DNA of 64,000 nucleotides from Synergistaceae bacterium (GTDB taxonomy: Bacteria; Synergistota; Synergistia; Synergistales; Aminobacteriaceae), in NCBI GenBank assembly GCA_017448375.1, contig JAFSLR010000313.1, forward strand, positions 2,873 to 66,872, read 5' to 3'. The notes under the pieces were generated by a model. That model was not told the origin of the DNA and made no database searches. It saw nothing but the letters and a program-made list of their open reading frames with translations. How positions within the stretch are numbered: position 1 is the first letter of the stretch; each line of letters opens with the position of its first letter. The translations under genes were made by a program, and so were the position numbers. Shown piece after piece: positions 1-25,451 of this stretch.

Positions 1-1098
1 GTTGCAGAAGGGACAAGCTCCGTTGTCGGGATTGATATAGTCCATTCCGCAAGTATCACAATGAAGCGAAATATCATTAGCCCGTGCGAGTTCCAATGCC
101 CATTCACTCATAGAAGGCCGCGAAAGGTAGTTATCTCTGCCTTCCTGACAAAACGTTTGCTGAAATAAGTCCCTCAGTTCCGAAGTCAGGACAAAATCAA
201 GCCGTAAAAATTCGCCTTTATTGCTGTCGTCTTCAGTGTCCGCAACATAGGCAAGCGTTCCTCCCGATAAATTAGCATCAGCGTTATCATAGCTGTCATC
301 TTCGTCAGCCATTGCGTAGTATTTCCTGCCCTTGAACGGGTGAAGACCGGCTAACTGCTTGAAGAGGCACACGGCGAATGTATAAACATCAGAGCCGAAA
401 GAATTACCGCTTCCGTTGCGTTCTTCTTCAGGGACATTCTGAGCAAATTCCTGATCAAATAAAACGATTTCAGGAGCGGCAAGTCCAGGAGTGTAACAGA
501 TTGATTTAAGCGTATTCGATTCATAATCGAGGTTGTCTGCATCAATAAGCCATACATGACAAAATTCTTTGCTGTTGGATATAAAGACATTGTTCTGTGA
601 ATAATCGCAATAGACAAGCCCAACCGAATGAAGCTGTGCAAGAAGCGCGGAACTCTTCATGAATGCCTCCAGCCTCCTTCGTTCACCGCCTGAAGATATA
701 TAATCTGAGAAAAAGCCATTGCATTTCTCATCGTGTTTCTTCGTGAATGGAGTCGTAACACGTTCTTCGGGAGCAACAGGCTCATCAAAAGCGGACTTAA
801 ACGAGATCATGTCTGACATCATGGTCATAACGTAGCCCGAGTAATCTTTCAATGTAGCTTGGGGCATTGTAATATGCAGCCCATAGGGGATTGGGAGAAA
901 TCGCAGGGTCATGTATTTATCATTCTCTGTTGGAGGAACCAGTTCATCGTCAGCAAGCTCAAATTTTACAACGACGTTGGGAACATTAGTTCTGAACACA
1001 ACACCCTGACCTCCTCGTGAAATTTCACCGTTAAGCCTGTGAGTATGCCCATAGCTGTCAGTACAAACTGAAATTCTTTCAATATCAGTTATCATCAT
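1..1098 (-). CDS. Hanks-type Ser/Thr protein kinase with C-terminal zinc ribbon (TerY-P triad kinase-like); partial, 3' end beyond left edge
   Basis: Absent from the ORF track because there is no stop in the window. My minus-strand translation from ATG 1098 reads MMITDIERISVCTDSYGHTHRLNGEISRGGQGVVFRT.. It shows a Gly-rich loop (GGQGVV), VVVKF, a catalytic-loop-like VYCDYSQNNVFI, LIDADN (DFG-equivalent) and CDTCG..CPFCN at the window edge. It is open for all 366 codons. Its ATG overlaps the PP2C stop (ATGA at 1098-1095). Confidence 0.8.
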   Translation of the reverse strand, partial: MMITDIERISVCTDSYGHTHRLNGEISRGGQGVVFRTNVPNVVVKFELADDELVPPTENDKYMTLRFLPIPYGLHITMPQATLKDYSGYVMTMMSDMISFKSAFDEPVAPEERVTTPFTKKHDEKCNGFFSDYISSGGERRRLEAFMKSSALLAQLHSVGLVYCDYSQNNVFISNSKEFCHVWLIDADNLDYESNTLKSICYTPGLAAPEIVLFDQEFAQNVPEEERNGSGNSFGSDVYTFAVCLFKQLAGLHPFKGRKYYAMADEDDSYDNADANLSGGTLAYVADTEDDSNKGEFLRLDFVLTSELRDLFQQTFCQEGRDNYLSRPSMSEWALELARANDISLHCDTCGMDYINPDNGACPFCN

Positions 1099-1790
1099 TC
1101 TTCTTCCTCCTCCTCTCCCAAAGCAAATGCTATTGTCTTGTCATCGCTTCCGTCCCAGTCTTTTAGCCATGATGCAATAATCTCCTCTATTTCGTCGGAT
1201 GAGAGTTTGGCATATTCCCTAAAGAATCCACAGGCGAAGTCGGCATATCTGAACACGGTATCCTGATCCAGTCCAACGCCGTCAGAGCTGAGGTATATGC
1301 CTCGAAAACGCTTGAAGTTTCGTGATAATACCTTCCAGTTCTCAAGGCATAACTCTTTATCCATTGCGTAGGTATAGTTACTGAAACCTTCTTCTTTCTC
1401 GTCAAGAGTTACTGCGTAGACATCATCGGCAAGAACGACTGCAACGCCATCACCGAGGTGAAATATAGTGAACCTGTCATTCTTCGCGATCACGAACAGA
1501 GCAGTACAGGCACATTCATTGACATCAAGGCCACGAAGTTTTTTAAGCCAGCGTATATTCAGCTTCTCAAGGAAATCTTTTGCATCATCAATTTCGCAGA
1601 GACTCTCGAACGTTAATTCAACTACAGATTCACACAAAGCCCTTGAACCGAAATGAGAGAGTTTGCAGCTTCCTACCCCGTCAGACAACACAATTACAAG
1701 CCCGGCCGGACTATTTACAGCGCAGAAATAATCCTGATTGACAGTATGATAAGAACCTTGAACGGATATTCCGCCGACCTTCAACTTCAT
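1095..1790 (-). CDS. PP2C-family Ser/Thr phosphatase
   Basis: ORF track 1095..1829. Motifs VIVLSDGVGS, HLGDG and LSSDGVG fit PP2C/SpoIIE-type phosphatases. The internal ATG at 1790 forms an ATGA overlap with the upstream stop (1787-1789), so 1790 is the preferred start. Confidence 0.75.
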   Translation of the reverse strand: MKLKVGGISVQGSYHTVNQDYFCAVNSPAGLVIVLSDGVGSCKLSHFGSRALCESVVELTFESLCEIDDAKDFLEKLNIRWLKKLRGLDVNECACTALFVIAKNDRFTIFHLGDGVAVVLADDVYAVTLDEKEEGFSNYTYAMDKELCLENWKVLSRNFKRFRGIYLSSDGVGLDQDTVFRYADFACGFFREYAKLSSDEIEEIIASWLKDWDGSDDKTIAFALGEEEEEE

Positions 1791-2266
1791 TGAAAACCTC
1801 CGTTGCACGAATAAAAGTCTCTGAAGCATATTTCAAACAAAGCAGCAAGGACATTTACGCACTTGAAGCAATAGTGATTCGGAGCTGCAATTTGAGTAAG
1901 AACGCTAACATCTGAATCTGCACCGACAGCAACAGGAACAAGCGCGGATTTTTTAGCGCACAGGATGTCGTCGATATTCTCAGGGTCAAACAAACCGTCG
2001 CTCAACAACAGAAATCTTGAGTTTTCTTCCGAGTCCTCTATAAATTCCTCAAGCGATGAGACATTTACGCTGTCATAGAACTTTATTTCGTCTGGGCTGT
2101 TAGCTTCCACAAGGCTGTCAGACCACGTGAAGCACTTCATCTTACAATCAGCATATTTTGCTTTTGAAGCAGCACTCATAATTGAACGGACTGTGTTGCG
2201 CTGTAAATTAGCCTTTCCGTCTGACTTGAAGCCCGCTGATGTGTCAACGATCAGATTCACCAGCAT
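1787..2266 (-). CDS. Small vWA-like protein with degenerate MIDAS (DTSAG)
   Basis: 159-aa ORF. LIVDTSAG.., FLLLSDGLFDPENI and VPVAVGADSDVSVLTQIA follow the vWA/TerY strand pattern, but the DxSxS motif is degenerate. Confidence 0.5.
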   Translation of the reverse strand: MLVNLIVDTSAGFKSDGKANLQRNTVRSIMSAASKAKYADCKMKCFTWSDSLVEANSPDEIKFYDSVNVSSLEEFIEDSEENSRFLLLSDGLFDPENIDDILCAKKSALVPVAVGADSDVSVLTQIAAPNHYCFKCVNVLAALFEICFRDFYSCNGGFQ

Positions 2267-2268
2267 TG

Positions 2269-2979
2269 TTAGTCATCGTCTTCGTCGTCATCATGGCGGG
2301 TTGGACGCTTCACTGTGGTTGATATGTCTCTTTTGACTGTAGGCTGTGCGTCAATAGTCTTGGCCTTATCGTGGCTCTTTGAGATGGACAGCGCAACATT
2401 CTTGAAAGCGTCAGCAATCGAACTTACGTCCTGAGCATAGAAGATCATTGCCCGGTCTCCTGTGAATCTTTCCATCATGTTGACATCTGCTCCTGTACCT
2501 ATTGGGACACCTATGCGGATACACTTTGCGGTTCTTCCGTTATTGATGAAATCCTGAAGGGGACGCTGCCATTCATCATTCGGTGCGCCGTCAGAAACAA
2601 CTACAACTGCAGGGCAATACCACTTGCCGGGGGTAGTTGACTTATCCTCGATGAGAGTTTTTGCCTTCTTCAGTGCATCACCGAGCGGGGTCATTCCATT
2701 GGCATTAAAGTGCGGAATACCGTTAGCCTGAAGATCAGGCGCATCTGTGTATGTCAGATGGAGATTCGCGTTATCTCCGCCGAAGGTGATAATTGCAACC
2801 TTAATCATCTTCTCGCGTGTTCTCTGAGCAGCAAAGGAGTTCACCATTTCGGTAACTGCGTCATGAAGAGCCTTGATAGGTTCACCGTCCATACTTCCAC
2901 TCACATCGAGAAGCAGTATCACAGGATAATAGCGGACTTCGTTATTCCTGAATCCTTCCTGAAAACCAGCCATTTTCAC
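2269..2979 (-). CDS. von Willebrand factor A (TerY-like) protein, paralog 2, acidic C-terminal tail
   Basis: 236-aa ORF with MIDAS motif LLLDVSGSMDGEPI, VVVSDGAPND and tail HDDDEDDD. An AGGAG lies upstream. The start is either GTG at 2979 or ATG at 2973. Confidence 0.85.
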   Translation of the reverse strand: MKMAGFQEGFRNNEVRYYPVILLLDVSGSMDGEPIKALHDAVTEMVNSFAAQRTREKMIKVAIITFGGDNANLHLTYTDAPDLQANGIPHFNANGMTPLGDALKKAKTLIEDKSTTPGKWYCPAVVVVSDGAPNDEWQRPLQDFINNGRTAKCIRIGVPIGTGADVNMMERFTGDRAMIFYAQDVSSIADAFKNVALSISKSHDKAKTIDAQPTVKRDISTTVKRPTRHDDDEDDD

Positions 2980-2999
2980 TCACACTCCTAATTAGATAT

Positions 3000-3704
3000 T
3001 TATTCATCATCGCCATCATCATCGTGCCTGACAGGACGTTTTACTGTAGTCGCAATACTCCTCTTTACTGTAGGGACAGAATGTTTGCTGCCGGTAGAAG
3101 TTTTACTTATAACTTCCGACACTTCTCTAAAGATTTTAGCGAGTGAGTTTACATTTTCTGCATGAAATATCATAGAGCTTTCTCCAGTGAAACGCAACAT
3201 CATATCTTCGTCAGCTTTCGAGCCTATGGGGACTCCAACTCTGAAACACTTTGCAGTGCGTCCGGTTTGAACAAAGTTATTCAGAGCCTTTTCCCATCCT
3301 GATGCGGGGCGTCCGTCCGAGACAAGCACAACAGAAGGAATATACCATTTGCCCGATGTCTTAGCTTTATCCTCTATCATGTCCTTTGCAACCGTAAGTG
3401 CCTCGTAAAGCAATGTACCTCCTCCAGCCTTCAGTTCGGGAACTCCGCGCTTTTGAAGTTCTGCGGCATCCGTGTAAGGAGTATGGACAACTGCACCATC
3501 AGCACCGAAAGTAATTATTGCGATCTTGAACATATTTCCAAGTCCCATTTCCTGCGCGAAGGTCTCAACCATAACACCAACAGCCTCATGAAGTATCCTT
3601 ATCGGTTCACCTCTCATGCTTCCGCTCACGTCGAGAAGAAGTATCACGGGATAATAGCGAACTTCGTTATTCCTGAATCCTTCCTGAAAACCGGCCATTT
3701 TCAC
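3000..3704 (-). CDS. von Willebrand factor A (TerY-like) protein, paralog 1, acidic C-terminal tail
   Basis: 234-aa ORF. The first 30 residues are identical to the 2269..2979 product (MKMAGFQEGFRNNEVRYYPVILLLDVSGSM). It also has VLVSDGRPAS and tail HDDDGDDE. Confidence 0.85.
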   Translation of the reverse strand: MKMAGFQEGFRNNEVRYYPVILLLDVSGSMRGEPIRILHEAVGVMVETFAQEMGLGNMFKIAIITFGADGAVVHTPYTDAAELQKRGVPELKAGGGTLLYEALTVAKDMIEDKAKTSGKWYIPSVVLVSDGRPASGWEKALNNFVQTGRTAKCFRVGVPIGSKADEDMMLRFTGESSMIFHAENVNSLAKIFREVSEVISKTSTGSKHSVPTVKRSIATTVKRPVRHDDDGDDE

Positions 3705-3722
3705 TCACACTCCTATAAATAT

Positions 3723-4742
3723 TCACCTGCAGACAAGGGAACTTGGGACTTTCTCTGTTATATTGCCTTCAGAATCTGTCTCAGTCTCGTAGCTTTCAAC
3801 TGTTATCTCGCAGTCGTGATCTTTGTTTTCATCGAACATGTAGCGTGAGAGCGGATCAATCAGATAACTCTCAACAATGTTACCGATCCCTCTTCCGCCG
3901 TTTGCGAGATTCTCAAGAGAACGTTCAAGTAACCTATCTCTCACCGTCTCACTTATGTTCAGCGTGATATTCATATTCTGCCTTATCGCCGAACAAATAT
4001 TAGCGAGTTGTGTATCAAGAATCTCTCTCGCTGTTTCAGGACGTATGAAATCAAAGACCACTATATTTTCTCCGAGCCTGTTAAGAATCTCAGGCCTGCC
4101 TATCCTGTGGAAGAAGTTCACGATTCCCTGCCTGACCTTTTTCTGCACCGCCTCATAGTTATCGCTCTGATCGACAAATTCACGGCGTTCACCGTTTTCA
4201 TCTATTTCTGAAATTCCGAGATTACTGGTGAAAATAATTATAGCCTCAGAAAAATACACAGTGTTTCCCTGACCGTCAGTCATGCGTCCATCTTCAAGTA
4301 TCTGCAGGAACTTATCGAGAATAGTTACGTGAGCTTTCTCTATCTCATCAAACAGCAGTATTGAAAACGGATTCTTCTTGACGGCATTAGTGAGCTGCCC
4401 TCCAACCTCATAGCCGACATATCCGGGAGGTGCTCCTAAAAGCCTTTGGTCGCTGTGAGGCTGTCCGTATTCGCTCATATCAAAGCGTATGCAGCTGTTC
4501 TCATCGCCGAATATCTTCTCCGCAAGAGTTTTTGCTGTTTCCGTTTTTCCCGTTCCTGTCGGGCCTGCAAAAAACAGAACACCTTTAGGCTTTCCGTGTG
4601 ATGATGCTCTGATTCCTGCCATGCCGGTAACTGCACGTTTTACTATGTCCAGAGTTTTTATGACCGCCTGATCCTGCCCTTTACACGCCTGCGGAAATCT
4701 GGAAGGGCACTCTTCAATTTTGACTTGTCGAAGTCGCGCCAT
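3723..4742 (-). CDS. ClpA/ClpB D2-type AAA+ ATPase module, probably the C-terminal half of one frameshifted ~630-aa gene
   Basis: Walker A GPTGTGKTE, Walker B ILLFDEIEKAH, IIIFTSNLG, GAPPGYVGY and the GQDQAV motif typical of Clp D2 domains. It overlaps the upstream ORF by 85 nt in another frame. Confidence 0.8.
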   Translation of the reverse strand: MARLRQVKIEECPSRFPQACKGQDQAVIKTLDIVKRAVTGMAGIRASSHGKPKGVLFFAGPTGTGKTETAKTLAEKIFGDENSCIRFDMSEYGQPHSDQRLLGAPPGYVGYEVGGQLTNAVKKNPFSILLFDEIEKAHVTILDKFLQILEDGRMTDGQGNTVYFSEAIIIFTSNLGISEIDENGERREFVDQSDNYEAVQKKVRQGIVNFFHRIGRPEILNRLGENIVVFDFIRPETAREILDTQLANICSAIRQNMNITLNISETVRDRLLERSLENLANGGRGIGNIVESYLIDPLSRYMFDENKDHDCEITVESYETETDSEGNITEKVPSSLVCR

Positions 4743-5602
4743 GGGTTATCCTTTATGCCGAACTTGTAGAGGTCAACAACATCACATAGATCTCGAATCG
4801 ATGTCTCCTCAGAACGGCACATTGCTCGAAGACTCCCCAGTTCGCGGAAACTGAAGCCCTCAGTAAGTGCGGTAAATCGGTCAAGAAGTTTATCCAACTC
4901 ATTTTGCGAGAAGAGTTCTCGTTCTGCCTCCCATATCTCTGCTGTGAAGAAACCCTCTATATTATTCTCTATGTATACTCTACGCTCATCCCTGGAGGGT
5001 GGAAGAATGTTAATTATCTTCAGGCAGGGATTATCATGAAAGAACCAGCTCGGTAAATCGTTAGTCTTGTTGGTGATGATGATTAAGATATTTCTGAGGA
5101 CGTCACCGCTGTCAGAACGCGCCTGTGAAGCATTCAGTGCCGCCTGATGAAGAAGGTTGTAACAGTCAACAGCTCTCTGCTCCAAATGCTGAGGGTCAGC
5201 AATATATCTTGAGGCAAAGTTCATGATCACAACCGAGGGCATTCTGTTTTGCGACAAACTGCGCTGTATTGACTGTACAGCGTCATTTTTCGTGAACGGA
5301 CTGTCTATTGCATCAGAGTTTCCATCAGAGCGAAGACCGACGAGTTCGGCGAAGACCTGAAGATATTTCTCATACGGTTCACAATGATTGTAGAAGCCCC
5401 TTACAGAATCATAAAATACTATGCTTTTGTACCCCTGTTCCTTAAAGTAGAAATGAAGATATTGCTGTAAGTCGACAATGGAATCTCCTGAATAGCTGTG
5501 ATACAAATCGAAGATGTCCCCTTCGAGAATAATGAGGGGCTTAATTTTGCTGAAGATGTCAAGCTCACGCGTCCAGTTGCTTTTACTATCGTTCATTACC
5601 AT
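4658..5602 (-). CDS. Degenerate AAA+-like module (no Walker A), probably the N-terminal half of the same ATPase gene
   Basis: 314-aa ORF. VVIMNF (Walker B-like), IIITNKTNDLP (sensor-1-like), ILPPSRDERRVYI and TEGFSFRELGSL (lid-like) resemble an inactive AAA domain. It ends ..FRRRVKG just where the other frame continues GQDQAV. Confidence 0.55.
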   Translation of the reverse strand: MVMNDSKSNWTRELDIFSKIKPLIILEGDIFDLYHSYSGDSIVDLQQYLHFYFKEQGYKSIVFYDSVRGFYNHCEPYEKYLQVFAELVGLRSDGNSDAIDSPFTKNDAVQSIQRSLSQNRMPSVVIMNFASRYIADPQHLEQRAVDCYNLLHQAALNASQARSDSGDVLRNILIIITNKTNDLPSWFFHDNPCLKIINILPPSRDERRVYIENNIEGFFTAEIWEAERELFSQNELDKLLDRFTALTEGFSFRELGSLRAMCRSEETSIRDLCDVVDLYKFGIKDNPWRDFDKSKLKSALPDFRRRVKGRIRRS

Positions 5603-6201
5603 ATTGTCAGCCCTTTCTGTTTTAGTCGTGTTTCAAGTTCCTGATGATACCCCGGCCTGTGAATACCGACAGAAGCTACACCCGTTGGTGTGGTGAAATT
5701 CTGAATTACATTATGCCACTCATTGAGGTAATCACTATACAAATCTTGATATTCCTTTTTGAGAAAGATAATGTTCTGATTGCTTGATCCTCTTAGGGCT
5801 TCGCCGTTATTACTTGCCTCGATATAAGGCCCGTCAATCAACACAGCTATATACTTCATAAGCTCAGGGTATTTACGCAGGAGTTCATCGTATTCATAAC
5901 CGGTATACACGAGGACATCACGGGATATTCGGTTAAGTTCTGGCAGCAGTTCCATCAATGCGTCAGGCTGATAGAATGGGTCGCCTCCAGAAAGAGTGAA
6001 GCCGTCTACTCTATATTTCACCGTGATATTGCTGACTATCTTCAAGAGACTCTGAAGTGTTATGCTTGTGCTGTCAGGCTGAGTCCAAAGTTCAGGGTTA
6101 CTGCACCCTTCGCAATGGTGCTCACAGCCGGCAAACCATATGCCTAGACGCTCACCTGGCCCAAGAGTCTTGACCGGATAAAGAATACGGGCAATAAACA
6201 T
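5596..6201 (-). CDS. Radical SAM activase, NrdG-like (anaerobic RNR-activating-enzyme family)
   Basis: 201-aa ORF with cluster motif GCEHHCEGCSNPELW (CxxxCxxC) and TLSGGDPFYQP. Start and stop overlap both neighbours (6201, 5596-5602). Confidence 0.75.
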   Translation of the reverse strand: MFIARILYPVKTLGPGERLGIWFAGCEHHCEGCSNPELWTQPDSTSITLQSLLKIVSNITVKYRVDGFTLSGGDPFYQPDALMELLPELNRISRDVLVYTGYEYDELLRKYPELMKYIAVLIDGPYIEASNNGEALRGSSNQNIIFLKKEYQDLYSDYLNEWHNVIQNFTTPTGVASVGIHRPGYHQELETRLKQKGLTIW

Positions 6202-7085
6202 CAGCGAAGTTCTACCCTGAAGAACGCCGCATTATTCCCGCTGGAGTCCTTCTTACTATCCCCGAGACTTAAGATGTCGCCGTCGGACAGCTCCCTCACT
6301 TCTCCGTTACGAACTTTCCTGCCGTTCACGTATGTATGATTCTGTGAGCCGAGATCCTGAACAGTCATAACTCCGTCAGAGAAGTTAATTTCCGCGTGTT
6401 TTCTACTTACCCAGACCATAGACTGAAGATGTTCATTCATTACATTTTGACGGCCAACTATGATTTTCCCAGGCTTAACCTCATAACTGTATGTGCCGTC
6501 ATCTGACAGAAGGCGGGCATATGCAGCTTTATGTTTTACTTGCGGTTCTGGAGCTTTTACATTCTCGGGGTTATGGTTACTGGGTTGTGGCTCAGGAGCT
6601 TCCTGTGAACGCTTGAGAATTTCGGCCTCTGCTTCTTGACGGGACATTATGTTGGTGGGAGCATGGCATTTCTCACACAAGCGGCTTGTTACAGGGTTAA
6701 TGTAATTGCAGTCAAGGTTCGAGCATAATCTGACCGCCTTACCTTGCGATGACGGCTGCTCTGGTTCCGGCGGTTTTGAAGGTGATTGTTCTTCAGTATC
6801 CTTAGCAGATTGTAACTTCTTCAGTTCTTCTTCTACTTTATCCGCTGGAATAGCTGGGACAGAACCTAGGTCAGCACCGCACGGACAAGCCACAGATTTT
6901 GCGGAGTTCACCGTAAAACATACAGGACAAATCTTTTTCTTTTCAGGAGATTTTGGTGTATCTTTCGGAACATTTCCGTCTTGAACTTTCATTACGCTGC
7001 TTAGGTCTTCTCCGCATGATTTGCAGTTATTGCGGTTACCCTTGTTCTTTAAGCCGCATTTCGGGCAATATTTCACCAAGTCCAT
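6201..7085 (-). CDS. Triple zinc-ribbon + C-terminal FHA domain protein
   Basis: CPKCG..CKSCG, CPVC..CPCG and CSNLDC..CEKCH ribbons, a PE-rich linker, then FHA signature IIVGRQ..VSRKHAEI..VQDLGSQNHTYVNGRKV..GDILSLG. Confidence 0.8.
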   Translation of the reverse strand: MDLVKYCPKCGLKNKGNRNNCKSCGEDLSSVMKVQDGNVPKDTPKSPEKKKICPVCFTVNSAKSVACPCGADLGSVPAIPADKVEEELKKLQSAKDTEEQSPSKPPEPEQPSSQGKAVRLCSNLDCNYINPVTSRLCEKCHAPTNIMSRQEAEAEILKRSQEAPEPQPSNHNPENVKAPEPQVKHKAAYARLLSDDGTYSYEVKPGKIIVGRQNVMNEHLQSMVWVSRKHAEINFSDGVMTVQDLGSQNHTYVNGRKVRNGEVRELSDGDILSLGDSKKDSSGNNAAFFRVELR

Positions 7086-7101
7086 AAACCTTTATTCTCC
7101 T

Positions 7102-8253
7102 TTACGAAATACTCAAGCTCTCAGAAGCACTCGTGAAATTATTGTTACGCTCTGAGGCAAGAACCTTCACATCACGCTGCATTTTATATTCTTCAATCAA
7201 GAACGATGGAGCATAAGCACCATTTGGCGGCTGTCGTGTAATTGAACAAGTTATGCCTTTTACTGCTATATCCTCCTCGAATTTATGAGCCTTTGCACAA
7301 AAAGACCGCTGGTGATTCTCAAGGACAATGGGCATTTCATCATAAAGCGGGTATTCTTCACAGGAACTTGAACTTCTGAGCGCGCCTATCTCTATTGAAA
7401 TTTGTCCGTTATCCTGATAGATAACACTAGCTGCGACACCGTCATCATCAATCTGATAAAGTTCTTCGGTAAAAGACAGGCCTGACGGAACGGTCATTTT
7501 ACGCGATCCAATGACTTTATAACCCATGCTTGCCATTTCCTCGTTCATCGTGTTGTGTATGTATTGACGCTTACTGTCAGTATATGCGCGCTCTTCGAGA
7601 GAACTTATCAATTCGGTTAAAGTTGCCTCCGCGTTCTCATCAAACAGCACTTCCTTACATTCAACACCAACCATCTCAGCTGAAGCTCTATACTTATCAA
7701 CAAGCGACAGATATGTTTCAAAGCGTTCATGATATTTTCTGCACTTGTTGACGAATGGAACCAGTACTAATGAATCAAACCGGTCAACATCGTCAATACT
7801 GTTCAGCGATGTAATTTCAAGCTCCAGACTTTCAGCCTCACTATGCAATTCATCTGAGAGGTTTAAGCCGTAGACTTCAGATAAAAAGTTCTGAAGCTGT
7901 TTAACTCTCTCGTCGAGCTGAAGTTGTTGCTGCCGCTGTGCTCTTAGGCGTTTTGTTTCATCAGCCCTTTGCTGCATAATTAGTTCTTCCTGTCTTTGCC
8001 GGGCTTCACGGAGCTGACGTGTCTCTTCGGCTTTTTGGTTCTGCTCACGGATCTTGCGTGCAAGTTCTTCGGCCTCTTGCTTTCTGCGAGCTTCTTCTTT
8101 TCTGCGAATCTCTTCAGCTTCACGTATCCTTCTAGCTTCTTCTCTGGCTTTACGTTCTCTTTCCTGAGCTTCACGCTGTTCTTGTTTTCTGCGGCGCTCT
8201 TCTTCCTGACGTTTTTTGCGTTCTCTCTCTCGTCTGCGCCTTTTTTCCTGCAA
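7102..8253 (-). CDS. ERK-rich coiled-coil protein with uncharacterised C-terminal domain
   Basis: 383-aa ORF from a TTG start. About 110 aa of E/R/K/Q low-complexity heptad-like sequence is followed by a globular part. The frame stays open upstream to 8352. GGAGG at 8361-8365 sits 8 nt before an in-frame ATT (8352-8350), so the true start is uncertain. Confidence 0.6.
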   Translation of the reverse strand: MQEKRRRRERERKKRQEEERRRKQEQREAQERERKAREEARRIREAEEIRRKEEARRKQEAEELARKIREQNQKAEETRQLREARQRQEELIMQQRADETKRLRAQRQQQLQLDERVKQLQNFLSEVYGLNLSDELHSEAESLELEITSLNSIDDVDRFDSLVLVPFVNKCRKYHERFETYLSLVDKYRASAEMVGVECKEVLFDENAEATLTELISSLEERAYTDSKRQYIHNTMNEEMASMGYKVIGSRKMTVPSGLSFTEELYQIDDDGVAASVIYQDNGQISIEIGALRSSSSCEEYPLYDEMPIVLENHQRSFCAKAHKFEEDIAVKGITCSITRQPPNGAYAPSFLIEEYKMQRDVKVLASERNNNFTSASESLSIS

Positions 8254-8523
8254 GAGACGGCGTTTTTGTTCCTGGCGCTGGTGATTCCTCTGCCTCAGAG
8301 AAACTTCAAGATAAACATCAACATCGAAATATCCATCAAAAGGCGAACTAATTCAAAACACCTCCATAACATGAAATTTTTTATAATTATTACACGCAGA
8401 AAGGATAGAAACAACAGTAATTAACGTGTGCGTTTGAAAATAAACAGTATACTGAAAGTAGAAATTGATATAAAATAATAAAAACTTTACGCAAAAACTA
8501 ACTACGTAATAACTTTTGCAAAA

Positions 8524-9186
8524 ATGACGACAGTATTTAATCTGACAGATAATGAGATTTCACGTTTAACGGCAAAATTTAGAGAGTTTCAGGATACCCG
8601 CAATGCGCTTCTAATATTTATCATAAATTACATTGCAGATTATCAACAGTCTCATGGCACATCTTCAAATCATCGCAGATATTTGCGGCAGAAATATACT
8701 TGGCAGACACCAAGAATAAATTATTTATTCAACAGCGGGGACGGCTTTTATTGGAGTGTGAGAAACATTGCTATAGTTTTAGGGCGCAACCGTTCATCAA
8801 TCACGAGAACAATGAAAAAAATGAAGACATCTGAAGACTGGAATAATAGACTGTCAGACCTTAGAAGAATAGTAACCTCTGACAATGGCTTGAATATTGT
8901 AGTATTCCATCAGGATATTTTTGAGTTGCTGCTAGATTACTACGAGGAAGAATACTTAATGCGTCTCGCAAAGCCAAGACATGGCAGTGCAGAAAATGCC
9001 CCTGATATAGAGGAATTACGCCGTTTTTGGCATCAACTTAGAGCACAGGAGAATATTCAAAAGAGCTTATTTGCGCCTGGAAGTTTTAGAGCCTGTTTGC
9101 CAGGTTCGCCAGTCAGCTGGCACTATCGTTTCAGGAATATCGTGCGAAAAATTTTTGACTTCATAAAAATTAAATGCACAGGTTAA
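8524..9186 (+). CDS. Hypothetical protein, possible HTH
   Basis: 220-aa ORF, divergent from the operon. The segment VRNIAIVLGRNRSSITRTMKKM looks HTH-like. No family recognised. Confidence 0.4.
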   Translation: MTTVFNLTDNEISRLTAKFREFQDTRNALLIFIINYIADYQQSHGTSSNHRRYLRQKYTWQTPRINYLFNSGDGFYWSVRNIAIVLGRNRSSITRTMKKMKTSEDWNNRLSDLRRIVTSDNGLNIVVFHQDIFELLLDYYEEEYLMRLAKPRHGSAENAPDIEELRRFWHQLRAQENIQKSLFAPGSFRACLPGSPVSWHYRFRNIVRKIFDFIKIKCTG

Positions 9187-9262: not shown

Positions 9263-10168
9263 ATGAAAAATTATGAGTTCTACGAATTATGCAAAGAAGC
9301 AACTGCAGAGGAAGTTAAGGCCGCCATAAATTCCGGGGCTGACCCGAACGCAAGAGTTAAGTATGGCAGGACTGCTTTAACTGCTGCCTGCAACTGCAAC
9401 ACTTCTGCTGTTGTAAAAGTACTGCTTGAGGCCGGAGCCGATCCAAACGCAACAGAATTTGAAGGCTGGACAGCGTTAATGTCGGTAGTTGATAAAGACG
9501 AGGTTGAACTCAAAACCGTTAAACTGCTAATAGATGCCGGAGCTGACGTAAATGCAAAAAATGATTTCGGTACTACGCCTTTACTGCGTGCTGTATGCTG
9601 GAACAACCGACCCGATATTGTCAAAGTTTTACTTGAGGCTGGAGCTGATATGTATGCTTTTGGGGCCATAGGCTTTGATGATTTTGAATACGGCTCTACA
9701 ACGCCTGTACAAGCATCCATTGCTAAATGGGATAACACGATCATCAAAATTTTTCTCGATGCTGGAGTAGACGTAAACAGAAGATATGGAGGCGGCCAAA
9801 CTCTTCTCATTGAGGCAGCAGGCATGTATAAAAGTGCTGACACCGTCAGGTTTCTGCTTGATGCCGGCGCTGATGTCAATATGAGGCGTTACGATGATTT
9901 CACAGCATTGCTAGCGGCTGCAGAATGTTATACATCACCTGATGCTGAAGACACTATAAAAATGTTATTAGATGCTGGAGCTGACCCCAATGTCAGATAT
10001 AACGGCCTGTATGCTCTTGATTATGCCCGTAGAAATGAAGCACTTAAAGGTACTGAGGCATTGAGACGTCTTGAAGCTGTCACAGAAATTCTCCCAGACA
10101 TCCAGAAAAAGGTGTCTCAGTTGAAGAGTTTGAGCGTATTCTGGAGTACGGTTCACTTGGCAGAGTAA
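9263..10168 (+). CDS. Ankyrin-repeat protein, 5' part of a split gene
   Basis: Repeated G.TALM.A...G....VK.LL.AGADVNA units. Ends in the module linker LDYARRNEALKGTEALRRLEAVTE. Confidence 0.8.
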   Translation: MKNYEFYELCKEATAEEVKAAINSGADPNARVKYGRTALTAACNCNTSAVVKVLLEAGADPNATEFEGWTALMSVVDKDEVELKTVKLLIDAGADVNAKNDFGTTPLLRAVCWNNRPDIVKVLLEAGADMYAFGAIGFDDFEYGSTTPVQASIAKWDNTIIKIFLDAGVDVNRRYGGGQTLLIEAAGMYKSADTVRFLLDAGADVNMRRYDDFTALLAAAECYTSPDAEDTIKMLLDAGADPNVRYNGLYALDYARRNEALKGTEALRRLEAVTEILPDIQKKVSQLKSLSVFWSTVHLAE

Positions 10169-10230
10169 AAGAAGCTATAGAAGCTGGCGCTGATCTTCAT
10201 GCTGCGGATAAACCATATGGCGAAACTCCT

Positions 10231-11946
10231 ATGATCTTCACATTACGAAGACGGCCGGAGCCTGAACTGATAAAACTCTTATTGGATTCAGGTATTGATG
10301 TTAATGAAACAGGAGAGAAAGGCAGCCTATACGAAGGTGTAACATTTTTAATGGTTGCGCTTACTATGCCTCAAAATACGTACTTTAAGGAAAGCCCCTA
10401 TGAGGTTATAAAGTTGCTAATTGATTATGGAGCTGACGTAAACACAAAAAATCCCAACGGAGCGACTACCTTAATGATAGCTGCATATAATCGTGATCTG
10501 GAAGTTTTGAAACTGTTGATAGCTTCCGGAGCGGAAATTAACGCTAAGAATAATGAGGGATATACTGCTTTAATGGCCGCAGCTTATAGAGGCGATTATG
10601 AGAGCGTGAAGTTCTTTTTGAGCTTGGGAGCTGATGTTTCAGCGAAAGATATTACAGGAAGGACTGCACTAATTGAAGTAATGAATAACCTCAATTATAT
10701 TTCAATACTTGATGGCATAAAAACTATTAGACTTTTAATCTCATCAGGAGCTGAGGTGAACTTAAAAGCACTTGATGAGGGCATATGGACCAGCGGGAAT
10801 GGAGAATGCTATAGAACCCCTCTAATGATGGCAGTAAATTACAACAAAACTTTCTACGATGCTATGGAAGAAGTGTGCCCATTGCCGGAGATAGTTGAAT
10901 TTCTGTTAAATGCCGACGCAAAAATCAATGAAGTAGACAGCGAAGGTAATACAGCATTAATGCTTGCGGTACAAGTGAATAATCCAGATTGCAAAGTGAT
11001 TGAAACGCTCTTGGACGCTGGTGCTGATGTTAATGTTGAATGTAATGGGTTAAGGGCTGTAGATTATGCAAGAAGAAACCCTAAGCTAGTCGGCACCGAG
11101 ATATTCAAGAGACTTGAGAGCATGACCAAACCCTTGAGCTATAAGCGTCATGCAAATGCCTCTGAAATGCTAGAGTTTATCTATAAAAATCTAGCAGACG
11201 AGCTAAAAGCCGTCATAGCTGATGGTGCAAATGTCAACGAAAGGGAAAAAGAAGGTGGCTGGACAATATTGATGAGCGCTGTACACTCAGAAGAAGTTGA
11301 TCTTGAGATTATAAAAATTCTTCTTGAGTCTGGTGCTGAAATAAATGCAATAGATGAATTTCATGAAACAGCCCTGAAAAAAGCGGTCTATAACCAATAT
11401 AATGAAAAAAGTCTTGACGTCATCAAGCTCTTAATTGATGCAGGAGCGGACATAAATGCAGCAAATGATGAAGGCTGGACACCTCTGATGGAAGCAGCAT
11501 ATCACAACAATCCTGACATTGTGAAACTGCTTGTTGATTGCGGTGCAGACGTAAATATTGAGCGCAAGGGGTTACGAGCCATTGATTATGCTTACGGTAA
11601 CAAGTTAATGGCAAACACACAGGCGCTCAAAAAACTTGAAGCAATGACTGCTCGTAGAGATAATCACCGTAAAATTACGGACGACGAGTTTGTGGAAATC
11701 TGTGAAATAGGTTCGTTGCAACAGATAGAAAAAGCACTAAAAGCCGGAGCTAATGCTGATGCTAGAGACAGTATGGGAGCTACAATGCTTATGAACGCAG
11801 TCAGCGATCATGATAGCCCTAACCCTGAACTTATAAAACTGCTTTTAAATTATGGTGCTGATGTAAACGCAAGAGATTATAACAGATCAGTGCTAATGCA
11901 AGCGGTTCATCATGCTTCGATTCAAGAAAAACGGCATATTTCCTAA
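10231..11946 (+). CDS. Ankyrin-repeat protein, 3' part of a split gene (frame open from 10075)
   Basis: 571-aa ORF of ANK repeats. Upstream of its first Met the same frame reads GVSVEEFERILEYGSLGRVKEAIEAGADLHAADKPYGETP, which continues the module pattern of the preceding ORF. Confidence 0.8.
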   Translation: MIFTLRRRPEPELIKLLLDSGIDVNETGEKGSLYEGVTFLMVALTMPQNTYFKESPYEVIKLLIDYGADVNTKNPNGATTLMIAAYNRDLEVLKLLIASGAEINAKNNEGYTALMAAAYRGDYESVKFFLSLGADVSAKDITGRTALIEVMNNLNYISILDGIKTIRLLISSGAEVNLKALDEGIWTSGNGECYRTPLMMAVNYNKTFYDAMEEVCPLPEIVEFLLNADAKINEVDSEGNTALMLAVQVNNPDCKVIETLLDAGADVNVECNGLRAVDYARRNPKLVGTEIFKRLESMTKPLSYKRHANASEMLEFIYKNLADELKAVIADGANVNEREKEGGWTILMSAVHSEEVDLEIIKILLESGAEINAIDEFHETALKKAVYNQYNEKSLDVIKLLIDAGADINAANDEGWTPLMEAAYHNNPDIVKLLVDCGADVNIERKGLRAIDYAYGNKLMANTQALKKLEAMTARRDNHRKITDDEFVEICEIGSLQQIEKALKAGANADARDSMGATMLMNAVSDHDSPNPELIKLLLNYGADVNARDYNRSVLMQAVHHASIQEKRHIS

Positions 11947-12559
11947 AATTACAGAATCGGGGTGTTCTTGTTTTAATATGACGATTCCCACACACAAGAA
12001 TATTCACGCAAGGATACCCATTAAAAAAGTTATGGCCGGCAGGTTTGCACTGTCGGCCGGTCTGTAGTAAAATTCTTGTTAGCTAAAAAATTCGATGGGA
12101 GTAGTATAACATGTTAGTAAAACTTTTCAAAGTATTTTCAGATCAGAGACACACAGTTCCAAACTTGGTTCATAGCTCATTTAGAGCAAACAACAGGGTT
12201 CGTCTTATTAAGCCCTAATAAAAATATTGCTCCTATATCCTCACCCTAGGAAAGTTGACGGATAAAAAGGAGCTTAAGTTGCGGGCACTCTAAGGAGCGG
12301 AGTGACTTTTCATATTCTAACACATTTTAGAAATATGAAAAGCCCACGCTAAGAGAAAGTCTCCCAAAAGAAAGTCTCTCACCCCCTTTAAGAAAAGAGT
12401 TCCCGCAATACTAACCTTGAAAATTGAGTCCCTCAGAGGGATTTATAAGTAACCTAGAAGTAAGTAACCTTAAATAAGGAGGCAACAAACCTATGCAACA
12501 ACACAAAGAAACGCAACTACCCCAAGCAATGCGGAAACACCAAAAGGGAGTGATGGGAA

Positions 12560-14857
12560 ATGGCAATAACCTTTCGTATTCTTGATGAAGCCGTCGCGGC
12601 AGACCGAAATTTGCCTGGACCGGCGTTGAGGCTTTACATACTCATGCTCAATCTTGTCAACGTCAAAACGCGTGAGGGAGCGCTCTACATTAGCCAAATC
12701 GCAAAAGAGTACAATCGGTCAGAGCGTACAGTTCAGAGGTGGCTCGCTTTCCTAGCCAACGAGAATCTCATTGAGCGGCATTTCAGAAAAAGCAGGAGTA
12801 ACCCCCGCTGGAATGAAAAGAGCACGTTCGTAGTTCGCGGCAATGACGCGAAAAGATATGCGGATACTAGGTTTGCGGAGTTGAGCCGTCAAAAAGTGTC
12901 ACCAGGTGGTGACACTCAGCGTCACCCAGGAATTTTGAGTAGGGATTCTAAGGATATAGAAGATACTCTAAGGAGGGAAAATAAAGACCTACCTGAAGAG
13001 TATGCTATTGAAGAAGCCCAACCGTATGGTGAAGAACCCACAACAAAGACTCTGTCGAAGAACGAAGCCGATCAGCAAGAACTGATTCAAGCCGTCCCAG
13101 AGATCATGCGCACGACTGCTGAGTATCTTCTGCTCAAGACCGGCAGGACTTCTCTGAAACCGAAAGAAGTCAAGGCTCTCATTGAGCTCTCCCAGAACCA
13201 CACCCCTGCCCGTGTTCAGAAAGAGATAGACATATGTGTTGAGCGTTTCCGGCAGAATGGCAGAAAGCTGAACGGCCTGTATGCCGGATACATAGCCACC
13301 TGTCTGCGCGATCAGAAAAGCTGCACCACTGCTAGTAAGAGCACACCTGCTCGAAAGAACGACAAGGACAGGAACAAGGAAGCCCCAAATTCAGCACCTA
13401 CCGACGCTCTAGTGCAGTTCTCTATTACAGAGCGAGTTTTATCTCACGGGGAAGCTGAGAGTATCATTTCGGGTTATAAGCCTACAATGAAAGACTCAGA
13501 CAGCTTCCCAACTGCGCTGAGAGAATTATACAGGAAAATAACTCCTGAAATGACTCTTGAAGAATATCTGCGGTTGCGACATCCGGAAGCCACGGAAGCT
13601 GAGCTGGACACCAGCAGGGTCTCAGACTGGCGCGGGCTTCAGAAGGCGTTTGAAATGGATCAGACTTGCGCAAGCTGTGATAACCCTGACAACTGTCCAT
13701 TCAACCGAAAGAATGGTCGGCCAGTGACAATGGTGAAGTATCATAGGCTTGAAGTGGGCTATACTCTGCAGACCCGTTGCAAGCATGACAGAGGAAGGCC
13801 TGATCCGGAGTTCGAAGACAGAGTAAAGCGTAGCGGGCTATCAGCGTCCCAGGTGAAGCAGACATTCGAAGGCTATGACCACAATGGAATGCCGGCTGAG
13901 GTTGTGTCGGCAAAGGCGAAGGCGATAATGGCGGCAAAGAACCACACTTCACTGATATTATCCGGAAAACCAGGCACAGGGAAGACGCATCTAGCTGTTG
14001 CGATAGCTCTTGAAGCAATGCGTGGGGGGAAACAGGCGTTGTTCCGCACAGTGCCAGAGCTGATCGCTGAACTGAGGCAGGCTGACTGGGATCATGCGGA
14101 CTTCTTCGGTTTGCGGCAGAAGTTTAGGGACGTACCATGCCTGGTTCTTGATGACTGGGGTAAAGAGAAGGCGACTGAGAAAGGGATGGAGTATCTGTAC
14201 CAGATCATTGACTATCGATACCGGAAGGGGCTTCAAACTGTGATAACGACGAACGGGCTGAAAGGGGACGTAGAGCCGCTCGTATCGAGGATACTGGAGA
14301 ATGGCGAATGGGTATCGCTTCAGAATGCTGAGAATCATAGACTGAAGAAGGCTGAGAAAGTACCAGAGCCTGAAGCGAGCTTGCAAAAATCTGAAGTAAA
14401 TGCATCAGAGCTTGAATCAGCCACGCCGGAGAATGAAGCGACAGTACCGGCGGAAGAACTAGCCCCCGAACCTGAAGCGGCCGAGCCTGAAGTGCCCATT
14501 CCTGAAGCGGCTGAACCTGAGCAAAACATGTTACCTGAATACGACAGCCCCGCCGTGGAAGACGACGGATTCAGAAGCATTGGGGCGGTGCTGGGGGGAG
14601 AGAAGCCGAGAAGCGGCATATATAAGTATTTCCCCAACTATGACAGACTGGATGACTATGACAAGAAGCAGGTAGCCCTTTGGTGCATGCAGAATTATGA
14701 GCGTCTTGAAGCGGAAGAAGCGGGCGAAGCTACGAAAGTTCAACAGACGAAGCCTGAACATGATCCTGCATACGACGACGAGGATTTATGGAAGGAGGAC
14801 GAGGACGAGTATAGGCTTCCTGGAGACGACTTGTATAGGCCGGCTGTGGATCAGTGA
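12560..14857 (+). CDS. Replication initiator-like protein: N-terminal wHTH + DnaC/IstB-like AAA+ loader module + acidic PE-rich tail
   Basis: N-terminal ISQIAKEYNRSERTVQRWLAFLANENLIER. Walker A LSGKPGTGKTHLAVA, Walker B LVLDDWG and VITTN. Sits upstream of parAB. Confidence 0.75.
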   Translation: MAITFRILDEAVAADRNLPGPALRLYILMLNLVNVKTREGALYISQIAKEYNRSERTVQRWLAFLANENLIERHFRKSRSNPRWNEKSTFVVRGNDAKRYADTRFAELSRQKVSPGGDTQRHPGILSRDSKDIEDTLRRENKDLPEEYAIEEAQPYGEEPTTKTLSKNEADQQELIQAVPEIMRTTAEYLLLKTGRTSLKPKEVKALIELSQNHTPARVQKEIDICVERFRQNGRKLNGLYAGYIATCLRDQKSCTTASKSTPARKNDKDRNKEAPNSAPTDALVQFSITERVLSHGEAESIISGYKPTMKDSDSFPTALRELYRKITPEMTLEEYLRLRHPEATEAELDTSRVSDWRGLQKAFEMDQTCASCDNPDNCPFNRKNGRPVTMVKYHRLEVGYTLQTRCKHDRGRPDPEFEDRVKRSGLSASQVKQTFEGYDHNGMPAEVVSAKAKAIMAAKNHTSLILSGKPGTGKTHLAVAIALEAMRGGKQALFRTVPELIAELRQADWDHADFFGLRQKFRDVPCLVLDDWGKEKATEKGMEYLYQIIDYRYRKGLQTVITTNGLKGDVEPLVSRILENGEWVSLQNAENHRLKKAEKVPEPEASLQKSEVNASELESATPENEATVPAEELAPEPEAAEPEVPIPEAAEPEQNMLPEYDSPAVEDDGFRSIGAVLGGEKPRSGIYKYFPNYDRLDDYDKKQVALWCMQNYERLEAEEAGEATKVQQTKPEHDPAYDDEDLWKEDEDEYRLPGDDLYRPAVDQ

Positions 14858-15094: not shown

Positions 15095-15883
15095 ATGAAA
15101 ACGATAGCAGTATCAAACCAAAAAGGCGGAGTGGGAAAGACGACGACGGCGATAAATCTCGGAGCGGCATTGGCCAAGCTAGGCAAAAAGGTCTGCCTGA
15201 TTGATGCTGACCCGCAAGGAGACTTAACGCTAGGTTTAGGGTTCGGGAAATCCCATCGAATAACGCTCAAGAACAAATTGGAAGATGTGATTCTTGGAAT
15301 TGAGAGCGATCCTCATGATGCAATCTTGCACCATGCGGAACGTCTTGACCTGATCCCATCGAACAAGTTACTATCCGGTCTTGATATGTCCCTTATCACA
15401 GTAGAGGATCGAGAACTTGTTCTGAGGAAGTACATATCACAGCTTACCGGAGAATATGACTATATTCTCATTGACTGTATGCCCTCACTTGGAATGCTGA
15501 CGCTGAACGCACTTGTGGCCGCCAATAGTGTGCTGATACCAGTGCAGCCACAATACTATGCGGCCGATGGGCTGACTGAACTGATGCGGGTAATCCAGTC
15601 AATGAAAAAACGATATAACCCTTCATTGGAAATTGAAGGAATATTGTTTACATTGGACAATGCGCGTTACTCAAATGCTCGTCGTATCAAGGAAAAGATA
15701 ACACTGCTGTACGGTTCACATGTGAAGATATTCGATGTGTCAATACCGCGGTTAGAGCAGCTTTCGGAAATATCCTCAGAGGGAGTGAGCATATTTTCAT
15801 ATGATCCACGAGGGAACGGGGCTATGAGCTACAAAAAGTTAGCGGAAGAAGTGGATGCAGGGACGGAGGATACAAATGCTTAA
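15095..15883 (+). CDS. parA: ParA/Soj-family partition ATPase
   Basis: Deviant Walker A NQKGGVGKTTT, DADPQGD and ILIDCMPSLG. Confidence 0.9.
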   Translation: MKTIAVSNQKGGVGKTTTAINLGAALAKLGKKVCLIDADPQGDLTLGLGFGKSHRITLKNKLEDVILGIESDPHDAILHHAERLDLIPSNKLLSGLDMSLITVEDRELVLRKYISQLTGEYDYILIDCMPSLGMLTLNALVAANSVLIPVQPQYYAADGLTELMRVIQSMKKRYNPSLEIEGILFTLDNARYSNARRIKEKITLLYGSHVKIFDVSIPRLEQLSEISSEGVSIFSYDPRGNGAMSYKKLAEEVDAGTEDTNA

Positions 15884-25433: not shown

Positions 25434-25451
25434 TAACTGACCATTTGCGCT

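Follow-up and report, generated by a model that had tools for sequence, protein, structure and literature searches.

We describe here a gene cluster at one end of a 64,000-nucleotide (nt) stretch of DNA, referred to as the window, from a Synergistaceae bacterium (GenBank assembly GCA_017448375.1, contig JAFSLR010000313.1, positions 2,873 to 66,872). To judge from the sequence, window positions 1-8352 are probably the 5' part of a 13-gene Type III-A CoCoNuT operon in a chromosomal defence island. CoCoNuT stands for the coiled-coil McrBC-derived restriction systems (PMC11090510). Besides a TerY-P switch, this operon would carry two extra vWA genes of the 5' type and an apparently undescribed cassette of four genes. 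The cassette encodes a protein without Pfam match that we call X, a zinc ribbon (ZnR)-FHA protein, a radical SAM enzyme and an AAA+ ATPase, and homology searches indicate that it is a self-contained module. The gene content, homology, collinearity, recurrence of linkage and conserved catalytic motifs reported below rest on direct comparison.

As an earlier note on this DNA had stated, the open reading frames (ORFs) between 8253 and 1 all lie on the minus strand and in close succession. The junctions that it named are also right, namely ATGA at 1790-1787 and 1098-1095, TGATG at 6203-6199 and a 7-nt overlap at 5596-5602. The gaps, given there as 20 nt or less, reach 26 nt at most, but the tight packing and the overlaps stand. 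The count of ten ORFs has to be lowered. This part of the operon comprises nine genes rather than ten because the AAA+ gene is frameshifted. Nor does the operon end with the window, since four further co-oriented genes continue for about 12 kb past its edge, bringing the whole to 13 genes and about 20.4 kb. Base composition is unremarkable across the operon. The same locus was found in more than 20 metagenome contigs by exact-protein look-ups, and the window is 100% identical over 8.6 kb to one of them, L001 (compared loci are cited by L numbers). Pfam searches support the assigned FHA, radical SAM, AAA_2/ClpB_D2-small, PP2C and two vWA domains. The kinase match is weak and below the cut-off, and the shortest vWA has no match. 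The ORFs without Pfam match in this region are 7102-8253, 4658-5602 and 1787-2266.

The earlier note had placed a triad of vWA, PP2C and kinase genes at the centre of the operon. Instead, the triad serves a Type III-A CoCoNuT as its accessory switch, and the CnuH, CnuE, CnuB and CnuC genes of this system lie just past the window edge. In CoCoNuTs of Types II and III-A, the TerY-P triad (vWA, PP2C and a Ser/Thr kinase with zinc ribbon, STK-ZnR) is followed by these four genes in this order (Bell et al., eLife 2024, PMC11090510). Here the four genes after the 490-amino-acid (aa) kinase are co-oriented with it and have overlapping or near-abutting starts. A reference locus was obtained by tblastn of CnuB against PLSDB, on the Enterobacter asburiae plasmid NZ_CP056712.1. 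Its gene order is VWA (233 aa), hypothetical (523), AAA ATPase (715), DUF1887-CARF, VWA (193), PP2C, kinase, AAA-domain protein (1144), hypothetical (718), 'ParA' (887) and DUF2357 (1348), and from this content we identify it as the compound Type III-A locus with SpoVK-like extension of PMC11090510. In tblastn comparisons, CnuB shares 42% identity with this locus (E 2e-159), CnuH 32% (1e-145), CnuC 27% (4e-96) and CnuE 21% (1.5e-19). Every gene from the short vWA through CnuC is homologous to and collinear with the reference, and the TerY-P triad therefore belongs to a named system.

The individual core proteins resemble their described counterparts to different degrees. CnuH is an SF1 helicase of 1129 aa with AAA_11 and AAA_12 domains and a PADLOC match to MkoA (272 bits), and it aligns with the reference over residues 51-1127. 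Described CnuH proteins are UPF1-like SF1 helicases with a large insertion after the Walker A motif and N-terminal SPB/RTL domains (PMC11090510). The AAA_11 match covers residues 458-838, that is, 381 residues against a model of 257 positions, and its length therefore indicates a large insertion here too. In L001 and L099, the CnuH gene is split into ORFs of 856 and 265 aa; decay of the helicase in the window strain was considered and rejected, as the split is a scaffold gap of Ns. CnuB (838 aa) is a McrB-type GTPase with GVSGTGKS and MNQDET (NxD) motifs, a weak AAA_5 match and a PDC-M26A match of 112 bits. Its N-terminal region of about 430 aa is highly charged and heptad-like and was read as a coiled coil. 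This agrees with the Type III-A CnuB, an NxD-clade GTPase of the McrB family with a long N-terminal coiled coil (PMC11090510). CnuE (671 aa) has no Pfam match at the cut-off, and a weak MarR_2 match (E 0.037) is the one sign of the winged helix-turn-helix (wHTH) expected of CnuE. It is 21% identical over its full length to the gene in the CnuE position of the reference. CnuC (1260 aa) matches DUF2357 (E 1.5e-8), and its alignment to the reference protein, which is of similar length (1348 aa), covers residues 58-1035.

The vWA, PP2C and kinase-ZnR genes in the window are adjacent, co-oriented, and homologous to and collinear with the triad of NZ_CP056712.1, so the earlier note was correct in recognising a TerY-P-type triad. 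Two full vWA paralogs precede it. vWA a (3000-3704) is TerY-like and of the 5' type, and both it and vWA b (2269-2979) match Pfam VWA_2/VWA and have an intact metal ion-dependent adhesion site (MIDAS), read as DVSGS, T and SDG. With the 5' VWA of the Enterobacter plasmid locus, vWA a shares 40% identity (E 1e-51). The two paralogs are 59% identical overall. Their 5' ends and upstream spacers (2850-2995 and 3575-3725) share 88% identity over 149 nt, and about the first 30 codons are identical, a pattern suggestive of gene conversion or of partial duplication in the recent past. The vWA of the triad itself (1787-2266, 159 aa), the minimal vWA of the earlier note, does not match Pfam but is 28% identical (E 3.5e-9) to the internal 193-aa VWA beside PP2C in NZ_CP056712.1. 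The internal vWA of CoCoNuTs has been described as shorter and with an imperfect MIDAS motif (PMC11090510), and the degenerate DTSAG of the 159-aa protein matches this description.

The PP2C phosphatase (1095-1790; PP2C_2, 8.3e-32, 110.9 bits) is 28% identical (E 1e-16) to the CoCoNuT-linked PP2C. The Ser/Thr kinase (1-1098), of which the first 366 of 490 aa lie in the window, scores 29.5 bits with the Pkinase model, whose cut-off is 31.7. However, it is 32% identical (E 1e-52) to the Ser/Thr kinase of the Enterobacter Type III-A CoCoNuT, and reading its sequence gives K45, a catalytic loop CDYSQNN, DAD, and CxxC pairs of the C-terminal zinc ribbon at residues 347 and 362. As in the TerY-P triad (Anantharaman, Iyer and Aravind 2012; Gao et al. 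2020), the vWA, PP2C and kinase form one translationally coupled unit. According to PMC11090510, the CoCoNuT-associated TerY-P kinase carries a C-terminal zinc ribbon, while the TerY-P tested as anti-phage (Gao et al. 2020) has an OB-fold on its kinase. By its zinc ribbon, the kinase of the window resembles the CoCoNuT form rather than the OB-fold form. The present locus further differs in having three vWA genes and in that the triad is not its core.

Upstream of the vWA genes lies the cassette. Its ZnR-FHA protein (6201-7085) combines three zinc ribbons with an FHA domain, a phospho-threonine reader (Pfam FHA 2.5e-16 plus DZR; DZR and FHA together 60.3 bits). The phospho-threonine-binding residues GR...SRxH...N are conserved in 66 family members. 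Two of the zinc ribbons are conserved across the family, and the window protein has three. The adjacent radical SAM enzyme (5596-6201; Fer4_12 9.8e-32, Fer4_12/Radical_SAM 110.6 bits) belongs to the glycyl-radical-activase (NrdG/PflA) class. It has the N-terminal GxGxR...CX3CX2C, the GGxP SAM motif and the small size of this class, and its best family matches are NrdG and the activase of pyruvate formate-lyase (PFL). The nearest NCBIfam model is NrdG (TIGR02491; E 1e-31), although the score of 109.9 bits is below the equivalog cut-off of 126.1, and with every other activase model the protein falls far short of the cut-off. PFL activase was the sole match in a sequence search of the PDB. Unlike NrdG and PflA, the enzyme carries a conserved, family-specific C-terminal extension of about 55 aa, and the operon contains neither a glycyl-radical enzyme, such as an NrdD- or PFL-like gene, nor the RVxG[YFW] motif. 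CX3CX2C, GGxP, VLIDGxY, GSxNQ and the C-terminal N.IQNF...SVGIH are conserved in 68 members of the family.

The AAA+ ATPase (3723-5602) had been described in the earlier note as a two-module enzyme of 314 and 339 aa. We reject the two-gene arrangement. It is one gene with a 1-nt deletion, and L002, L003, L006 and L098 encode the intact 626-aa protein. Compared with these alleles, of which L006 and L098 come from other samples of the same study, a GGGG run is one G short in the window (4677-4679). The resulting frameshift could reflect either a true inactivating polymorphism or a homopolymer or assembly error. A clearly split copy was seen in only one (L086) of 80 loci from GTDB genomes, and a few others are cut by contig ends. 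Many metagenomic matches to the ATPase are truncated; recoding or frequent pseudogenisation was considered and rejected, and the truncation was taken to reflect assembly quality.

The C-terminal half of the ATPase, D2, is ClpB-like. The Pfam matches (3723-4742) are AAA_2 with 169.2 bits (1e-49) and ClpB_D2-small with 30.3 bits, and the NCBIfam matches are to the D2 half of ClpB, ClpV and ClpA, spanning positions 563-847 of the ClpB model. D2 has kept Walker A and B and its sensor motifs; in 78 members it carries GPTGTGKT, a GAPPGYVGY pore loop, LLFDEIEKAH, IIFTSNLG and GRPEILNR. The N-terminal module of 314 aa has an AAA+ fold without a P-loop. An AlphaFold2 (AF2) model of residues 1-314 (pLDDT 82.7) was matched by Foldseek to NSF, ORC, Rubisco activase and FIGL-1 with E values of about 1e-5. 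The position of Walker A reads EGD or EGN, and D1 is therefore dead. We read the protein as a putative threading motor of the ClpB/ClpV type. It resembles these unfoldases in its strong D2 match with the GYVG pore loop, but has one active tier instead of two and lacks the N-domain and M-domain, for which 626 aa leave no room. No ClpP-docking loop was seen on reading the sequence.

The first gene of the operon encodes X (7102-8352), in which an ERK-rich coiled coil is followed by a conserved C-terminal alpha/beta domain. The ORF is called from TTG 8253, giving 383 aa. The start is more probably ATT 8352, seven bases past GGAGG at 8364-8360, giving 416 aa. The peptide ISSPFDGYFDVDV is encoded in frame upstream of the TTG and matches homologue N-termini MSSPFDGYFEVDF, and on this basis ATT 8352 is the probable start. 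The 33 codons upstream of the TTG, conserved with homologue N-termini (MSSPFDGYF...), contain no ATG, GTG or TTG in frame. In L097, the codon equivalent to this ATT is TTG. At its N-terminus, X has a short conserved motif; a long helical stretch follows, and the C-terminal domain, about 180 aa in size, bears an invariant MGY, several Gly, E, FC and PP..YA. In the AF2 model (pLDDT 77.5), the topology is helix, four strands, helix, two strands, and the conserved MGY sits at a helix-strand junction. The fold found no match in the PDB (best E 0.077) or BFVD (best E 0.019). Word-index searches with X were swamped by low-complexity words and gave 13-14 matches, and an exhaustive profile search was used instead. 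This defined a family of 729 clusters at 50% identity, 532 of which score at or below 1e-10. Among the 150 clusters listed, nearly all members are 380-490 aa long with the domain at the C-terminus, and a minority look like shorter fragments. Because the architecture is constant among these clusters, the family offers no informative fusions. X was also considered as a glycyl-radical protein and set aside, since it has no PROSITE-like motif and no fold match; this is kept as a reading of low probability.

The linkage of the cassette to the triad is not a feature of a single contig. The extra genes and the vWA, PP2C and kinase genes recur in the same order in two diverged loci, L096 and L097, so that the earlier note was right to link them. 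In L097, identities are 49% for X, 36% for the FHA protein, 51% for the radical SAM enzyme, 75% for the ATPase, 53-70% for the vWAs, 61% for PP2C and 63% for the kinase. L096 is again a CoCoNuT-linked form, with 60-85% identity and some frameshifts. Since the same order is kept at 36-75% amino acid identity in L097 and again in L096, the arrangement is not a chance juxtaposition. A scan of JGI metagenomes for further loci of the window lineage gave only canonical relatives with 42-44% identity.

The cassette also exists apart from CoCoNuT. The earlier note had taken the extra genes for elaborations of TerY-P. They are instead an independent four-gene cassette that occurs in Clostridia with non-orthologous kinase and PP2C genes and without vWA. 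The 185,579 species genomes of GTDB were pattern-scanned with the N-module of the ATPase, for whose 314 aa word-index searches had given 33 matches. At least 368 of these genomes, the majority from Clostridia, encode a relative. Eighty loci were kept, most of them from Oscillospiraceae, Lachnospiraceae or Ruminococcus and others from Erysipelotrichaceae and Desulfosporosinus; cultured strains are included, and Mediterraneibacter agrestimuris DSM 111629 also has the Clostridial locus. ORFs were called in 95 loci and labelled by iterated hidden Markov model searches seeded from the window lineage and L014, and presence was counted in 85 loci, limited to those with enough flank except for the radical SAM and PP2C genes. 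On this basis, 65 of 68 loci have the FHA gene, 61 of 64 have X ahead of it, 56 of 60 have a kinase upstream and 32 of 50 have a helicase. The radical SAM gene and PP2C, counted over the full set of 85 loci, occur in 76 and 71 of them, respectively.

The canonical Clostridial order is an Hhe-like SF1 helicase (1,700-2,170 aa, variably present), a kinase (about 560 aa), a variable region, X (about 430-480), ZnR-FHA (about 200), radical SAM (about 180-205), often an LRR_5 protein, AAA+ (about 625), PP2C (about 240) and, variably, DUF4236. In Lachnospiraceae bacterium A4 (L079, KE159527.1), the domains of the cassette loci were confirmed by Pfam and PADLOC, and the helicase scores 1197 bits with PDC-S37 and 524 bits with Hhe (Gao). 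No PADLOC model matched X, FHA, radical SAM, PP2C or DUF4236 of this locus. L079, Cuneatibacter caecimuris DSM 29486 (L024) and Desulfosporosinus sp. HMP52 (L089) share with the window the order X, FHA, radical SAM, AAA+, with N-modules that are 42-51% identical. The Clostridial loci also have a kinase, a PP2C and an SF1 helicase effector, although L024 has no helicase or DUF4236 gene within its 10-kb flanks. They differ from the window in that the helicase is of the DUF4011/MTES_1575 Hhe type and not CnuH, in having DUF4236 proteins and no vWA, and in the X protein, which begins with MSGPK... instead of MSSPFDGYF and lacks the ERK-rich coil. Among the loci examined, vWA genes, and PP2C, kinase and helicase genes of the window type, occur only in the window lineage. 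The PP2C and kinase of the window show no significant pairwise similarity to the Clostridial ones and are not orthologous to them. It follows that a kinase/phosphatase pair and an SF1 helicase effector joined the cassette on two independent occasions. A BspA-type LRR_5 protein is encoded between radical SAM and AAA+ in many Clostridial loci (e.g., L030 8901-10010 and L079 12594-13688), and one or two copies of DUF4236 follow PP2C in 26 of 62 loci with enough flank (about 40%). Both are candidates for variable sensor or effector parts. The named hosts are almost all uncultured gut, rumen or faecal Bacillota, taken as anaerobes, which fits oxygen-labile chemistry.

Extensions of this general kind are known in CoCoNuTs. 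ATPase-bearing 5' extensions between duplicated vWA genes have been described with EssC/WXG100, SpoVK/Gly-zipper/CARF and EccE3-VirB4 (PMC11090510, section 10). The window locus has the order of the compound Type III-A systems, from a 5' vWA to the short vWA, PP2C, STK-ZnR, CnuH, CnuE, CnuB and CnuC, with pairwise homology for each. As with the SpoVK/CDC48-like extension, the 5'-type vWA is duplicated and the ATPase is of a hexameric type with only the C-terminal tier active. However, the extension here consists of X, ZnR-FHA, radical SAM and a ClpB-D2-like AAA+, and the host belongs to Synergistota. X, FHA, radical SAM and AAA+ have no counterpart in the NZ_CP056712.1 locus, and the ATPase shares only P-loop-level similarity (E 0.007) with the SpoVK-like ATPase encoded there. 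Since the cassette lies 5' of both full vWA genes and its ATPase is ClpB-D2-like, we regard it as a fourth kind of extension. The proposal in the earlier note of an elaborated variant not yet described is thus retained in part. This add-on is not among the three described, but ATPase extensions beside duplicated vWA genes were already known. The terms 'Radical SAM', 'FHA' and 'ClpB' are absent from PMC11090510, and radical, FHA, ClpB and NrdG from its available supplements. No name or description of the cassette or of the Clostridial loci was found in the open-access papers and preprints searched, and both are provisionally regarded as undescribed.

How might the parts work together? An infection cue would switch the kinase on, and the kinase would phosphorylate a component of the system. 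The ZnR-FHA protein would bind that phospho-threonine, and X and the AAA+ hexamer would be assembled. The hexamer could then thread or remodel a partner, which might be the Cnu complex with its coiled coils or else a substrate passed on to the radical SAM enzyme; that enzyme would perform oxygen-sensitive radical chemistry on a protein. PP2C would reset the switch, and the MIDAS domains of the vWA proteins would mediate protein contacts.

By analogy, the proposed logic is akin to that of type VI secretion (T6SS) with its PpkA/PppA/Fha1/ClpV phosphorylation pathway, which may serve as a model for the present system. This threonine-phosphorylation pathway, reportedly worked out by Mougous and colleagues in 2007, is said to comprise PpkA (a kinase with vWA), PppA (a PP2C), Fha1 and ClpV. 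The two share their parts, namely a kinase of the Hanks type, a vWA, a PP2C, an FHA reader and an AAA+ of the ClpB family. D2 matches NCBIfam ClpV1 with E 3.6e-65, and the FHA domain matches TagH with E 2e-6. However, there are no T6SS structural genes here, the AAA+ lacks the ClpV N-domain and its D1 is dead, and the radical SAM enzyme and X are additional, so that the analogy is one of logic only.

Several observations count against reading the region as part of a Type III-A CoCoNuT with a defence cassette. The AAA+ gene is frameshifted in this window, and this copy may be inactive unless the deletion is an assembly error. PADLOC gave no TerY-P match for the vWA, PP2C and kinase proteins; weak matches to PD-T4-6/PDC-M21C were obtained for the kinase and PP2C. 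CnuE has been described with a wHTH and two HEPN domains bearing RxxxxH and a C-terminal RxH (PMC11090510), but the protein here has only the C-terminal RGH (RxH) at residue 640 and no RxxxxH. Similarly, the Type III-A CnuC is described as DUF2357 with an Hsp70-like nucleotide-binding and substrate-binding domain and HEAT-like repeats, lacking a PD-(D/E)xK nuclease (PMC11090510), but neither Pfam nor a PDB sequence search detected an Hsp70-like or HEAT signal in CnuC. The position of the cassette outside the full vWA genes departs from the compound Type III-A plan, in which the extension lies between vWA genes. No conserved glycyl-radical motif (RVxG[YFW]) was found in any labelled operon protein across the 95 loci. 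In the Clostridia, 18 of the 50 loci with enough flank have no helicase, and the neighbours in three such loci examined are housekeeping genes (Lgt, SufBC and sortase among them). The Clostridial core may thus have a non-defence regulatory role.

The helicase-less loci also favour the view that the cassette acts on its own in defence or conflict, hitch-hiking before CoCoNuT without coupling to its core and using the kinase and PP2C opportunistically or not at all. The dense defence island in which the window lies (TIR-NB-ARC-TPR, TIR-Sel1, ankyrin) would suit such a hitch-hiker, and the CoCoNuT authors suggest the status of autonomous neighbours for other extensions (PMC11090510). We nevertheless consider this rather unlikely. 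The window lineage lacks the cassette's own kinase and PP2C, which are present in more than 90% of Clostridial loci, and this implies that the cassette here relies on the TerY-P pair. Gaps of at most 26 nt or overlaps join it to the vWA genes, and the fused arrangement has been kept in L097 at 36-75% identity.

A bolder reading is that the cassette is a phospho-gated, radical-based immune module restricted to anaerobes. The radical SAM enzyme, fed by the motor and guided by the FHA protein, would radicalise or irreversibly modify X or an invader protein, and would thereby arm or execute defence by the SF1 helicase-nuclease, which is CoCoNuT in Synergistota and Hhe-like in Clostridia. X would be a candidate target with its invariant Gly/Tyr and Phe-Cys motifs and a fold for which no relative is known. 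This is speculative, and we think it quite improbable.

A physiological role is very unlikely. The kinase, X, FHA, radical SAM, AAA+ and PP2C set would then be a phospho-signalling module of anaerobes, for example in the control of anaerobic ribonucleotide reductase or in stress, with the link to CoCoNuT being secondary. The radical SAM enzyme is indeed closest to NrdG, housekeeping genes flank some Clostridial loci as noted above, and X, FHA and radical SAM match no PADLOC model. However, the enzyme is under the NrdG cut-off, has its family-specific extension, and no nrdD is nearby. The set occurs patchily, in 368 of 185,579 species genomes, and the linkage is to helicase-nucleases of the Hhe/PDC-S37 type in 32 of 50 loci, to mobile-element genes (recombinase and ParB in L012) and, here, to CoCoNuT. 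Chance juxtaposition or ORF artefacts, for which the one frameshifted gene and the uninformative promoter and terminator scans might be cited, have a negligible probability, as every ORF has significant homologues in the same order in many independent assemblies and in three bacterial phyla.

The setting of the operon is a chromosomal defence island. A divergent intergenic region (8353-8523) is the presumed promoter region of the operon. It contains one weak sigma-70-like match (8474-8446), which is at chance level. Promoter and terminator scans of the operon were no better than those of shuffled sequence, and an Rfam scan of the window gave no match. At 8524-9186, a gene for a 220-aa protein without Pfam match, conserved throughout the near-identical contigs, is transcribed divergently from the operon and is a possible regulator. 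The stretch at 9263-14857, which separates the operon from parA/parB (15095-16736), encodes two proteins with ankyrin repeats (301 and 571 aa) and an IstB-like/nSTAND3 ATPase of 765 aa; the GC content of the ATPase gene is 0.49-0.52, against 0.40-0.44 around it. An NLR-like cluster follows at 20977-33516, with TIR-NB-ARC-TPR genes at 20977-23454 and 25452-27824, a 698-aa protein without Pfam match at 27826-29922 and TIR-Sel1 at 30454-33516. A large protein of 941 aa (33935-36760) has Peptidase_M23, LRR_4, four He_PIG Ig-like domains and PKD. Beyond the TIR genes lie ordinary chromosomal genes (RecD2, FabH paralogs, DegT). Three FabH-like KAS III paralogs and a DegT aminotransferase (50371-57932, then TnpB/OrfB_IS605 at 56784-57932) possibly have a role in lipid or sugar modification. 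On the other side of the operon, CnuC is followed in L098 (16388-22517) by an AAA-ATPase_like/PDDEXK_9 gene, IS21 (IstA/IstB) and a tyrosine integrase, and a PDDEXK_9 homologue (32% identity) lies upstream of the related operon in L096. A plasmid or phage origin was rejected, since megablast of window 1-8400 against PLSDB found no match, the right part of the window holds genes of chromosomal type, and NCBI names the proteins as those of a Synergistaceae metagenome-assembled genome (e.g., MBR0168614.1 and MBR0168615.1).

To our knowledge, CoCoNuT and TerY-P are known only from comparative genomics, except for one screen hit, a TerY-P with an OB-fold kinase. The locus adds a phospho-threonine reader, a putative threading AAA+ motor and a radical SAM enzyme to the kinase/phosphatase switch of CoCoNuT/TerY-P. 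The twofold recruitment of the cassette provides a testable idea, namely that an FHA-dependent hand-off leads from the kinase to the ATPase and the radical enzyme. In gut Clostridia, the cassette loci represent a candidate system that has no name yet but is widespread, with at least 368 species and cultured strains among them. We know of no radical SAM enzymes in bacterial defence other than viperins. If the proposal is true, a glycyl-radical-activase-type enzyme acting in immunity would be a new chemistry for bacterial defence.

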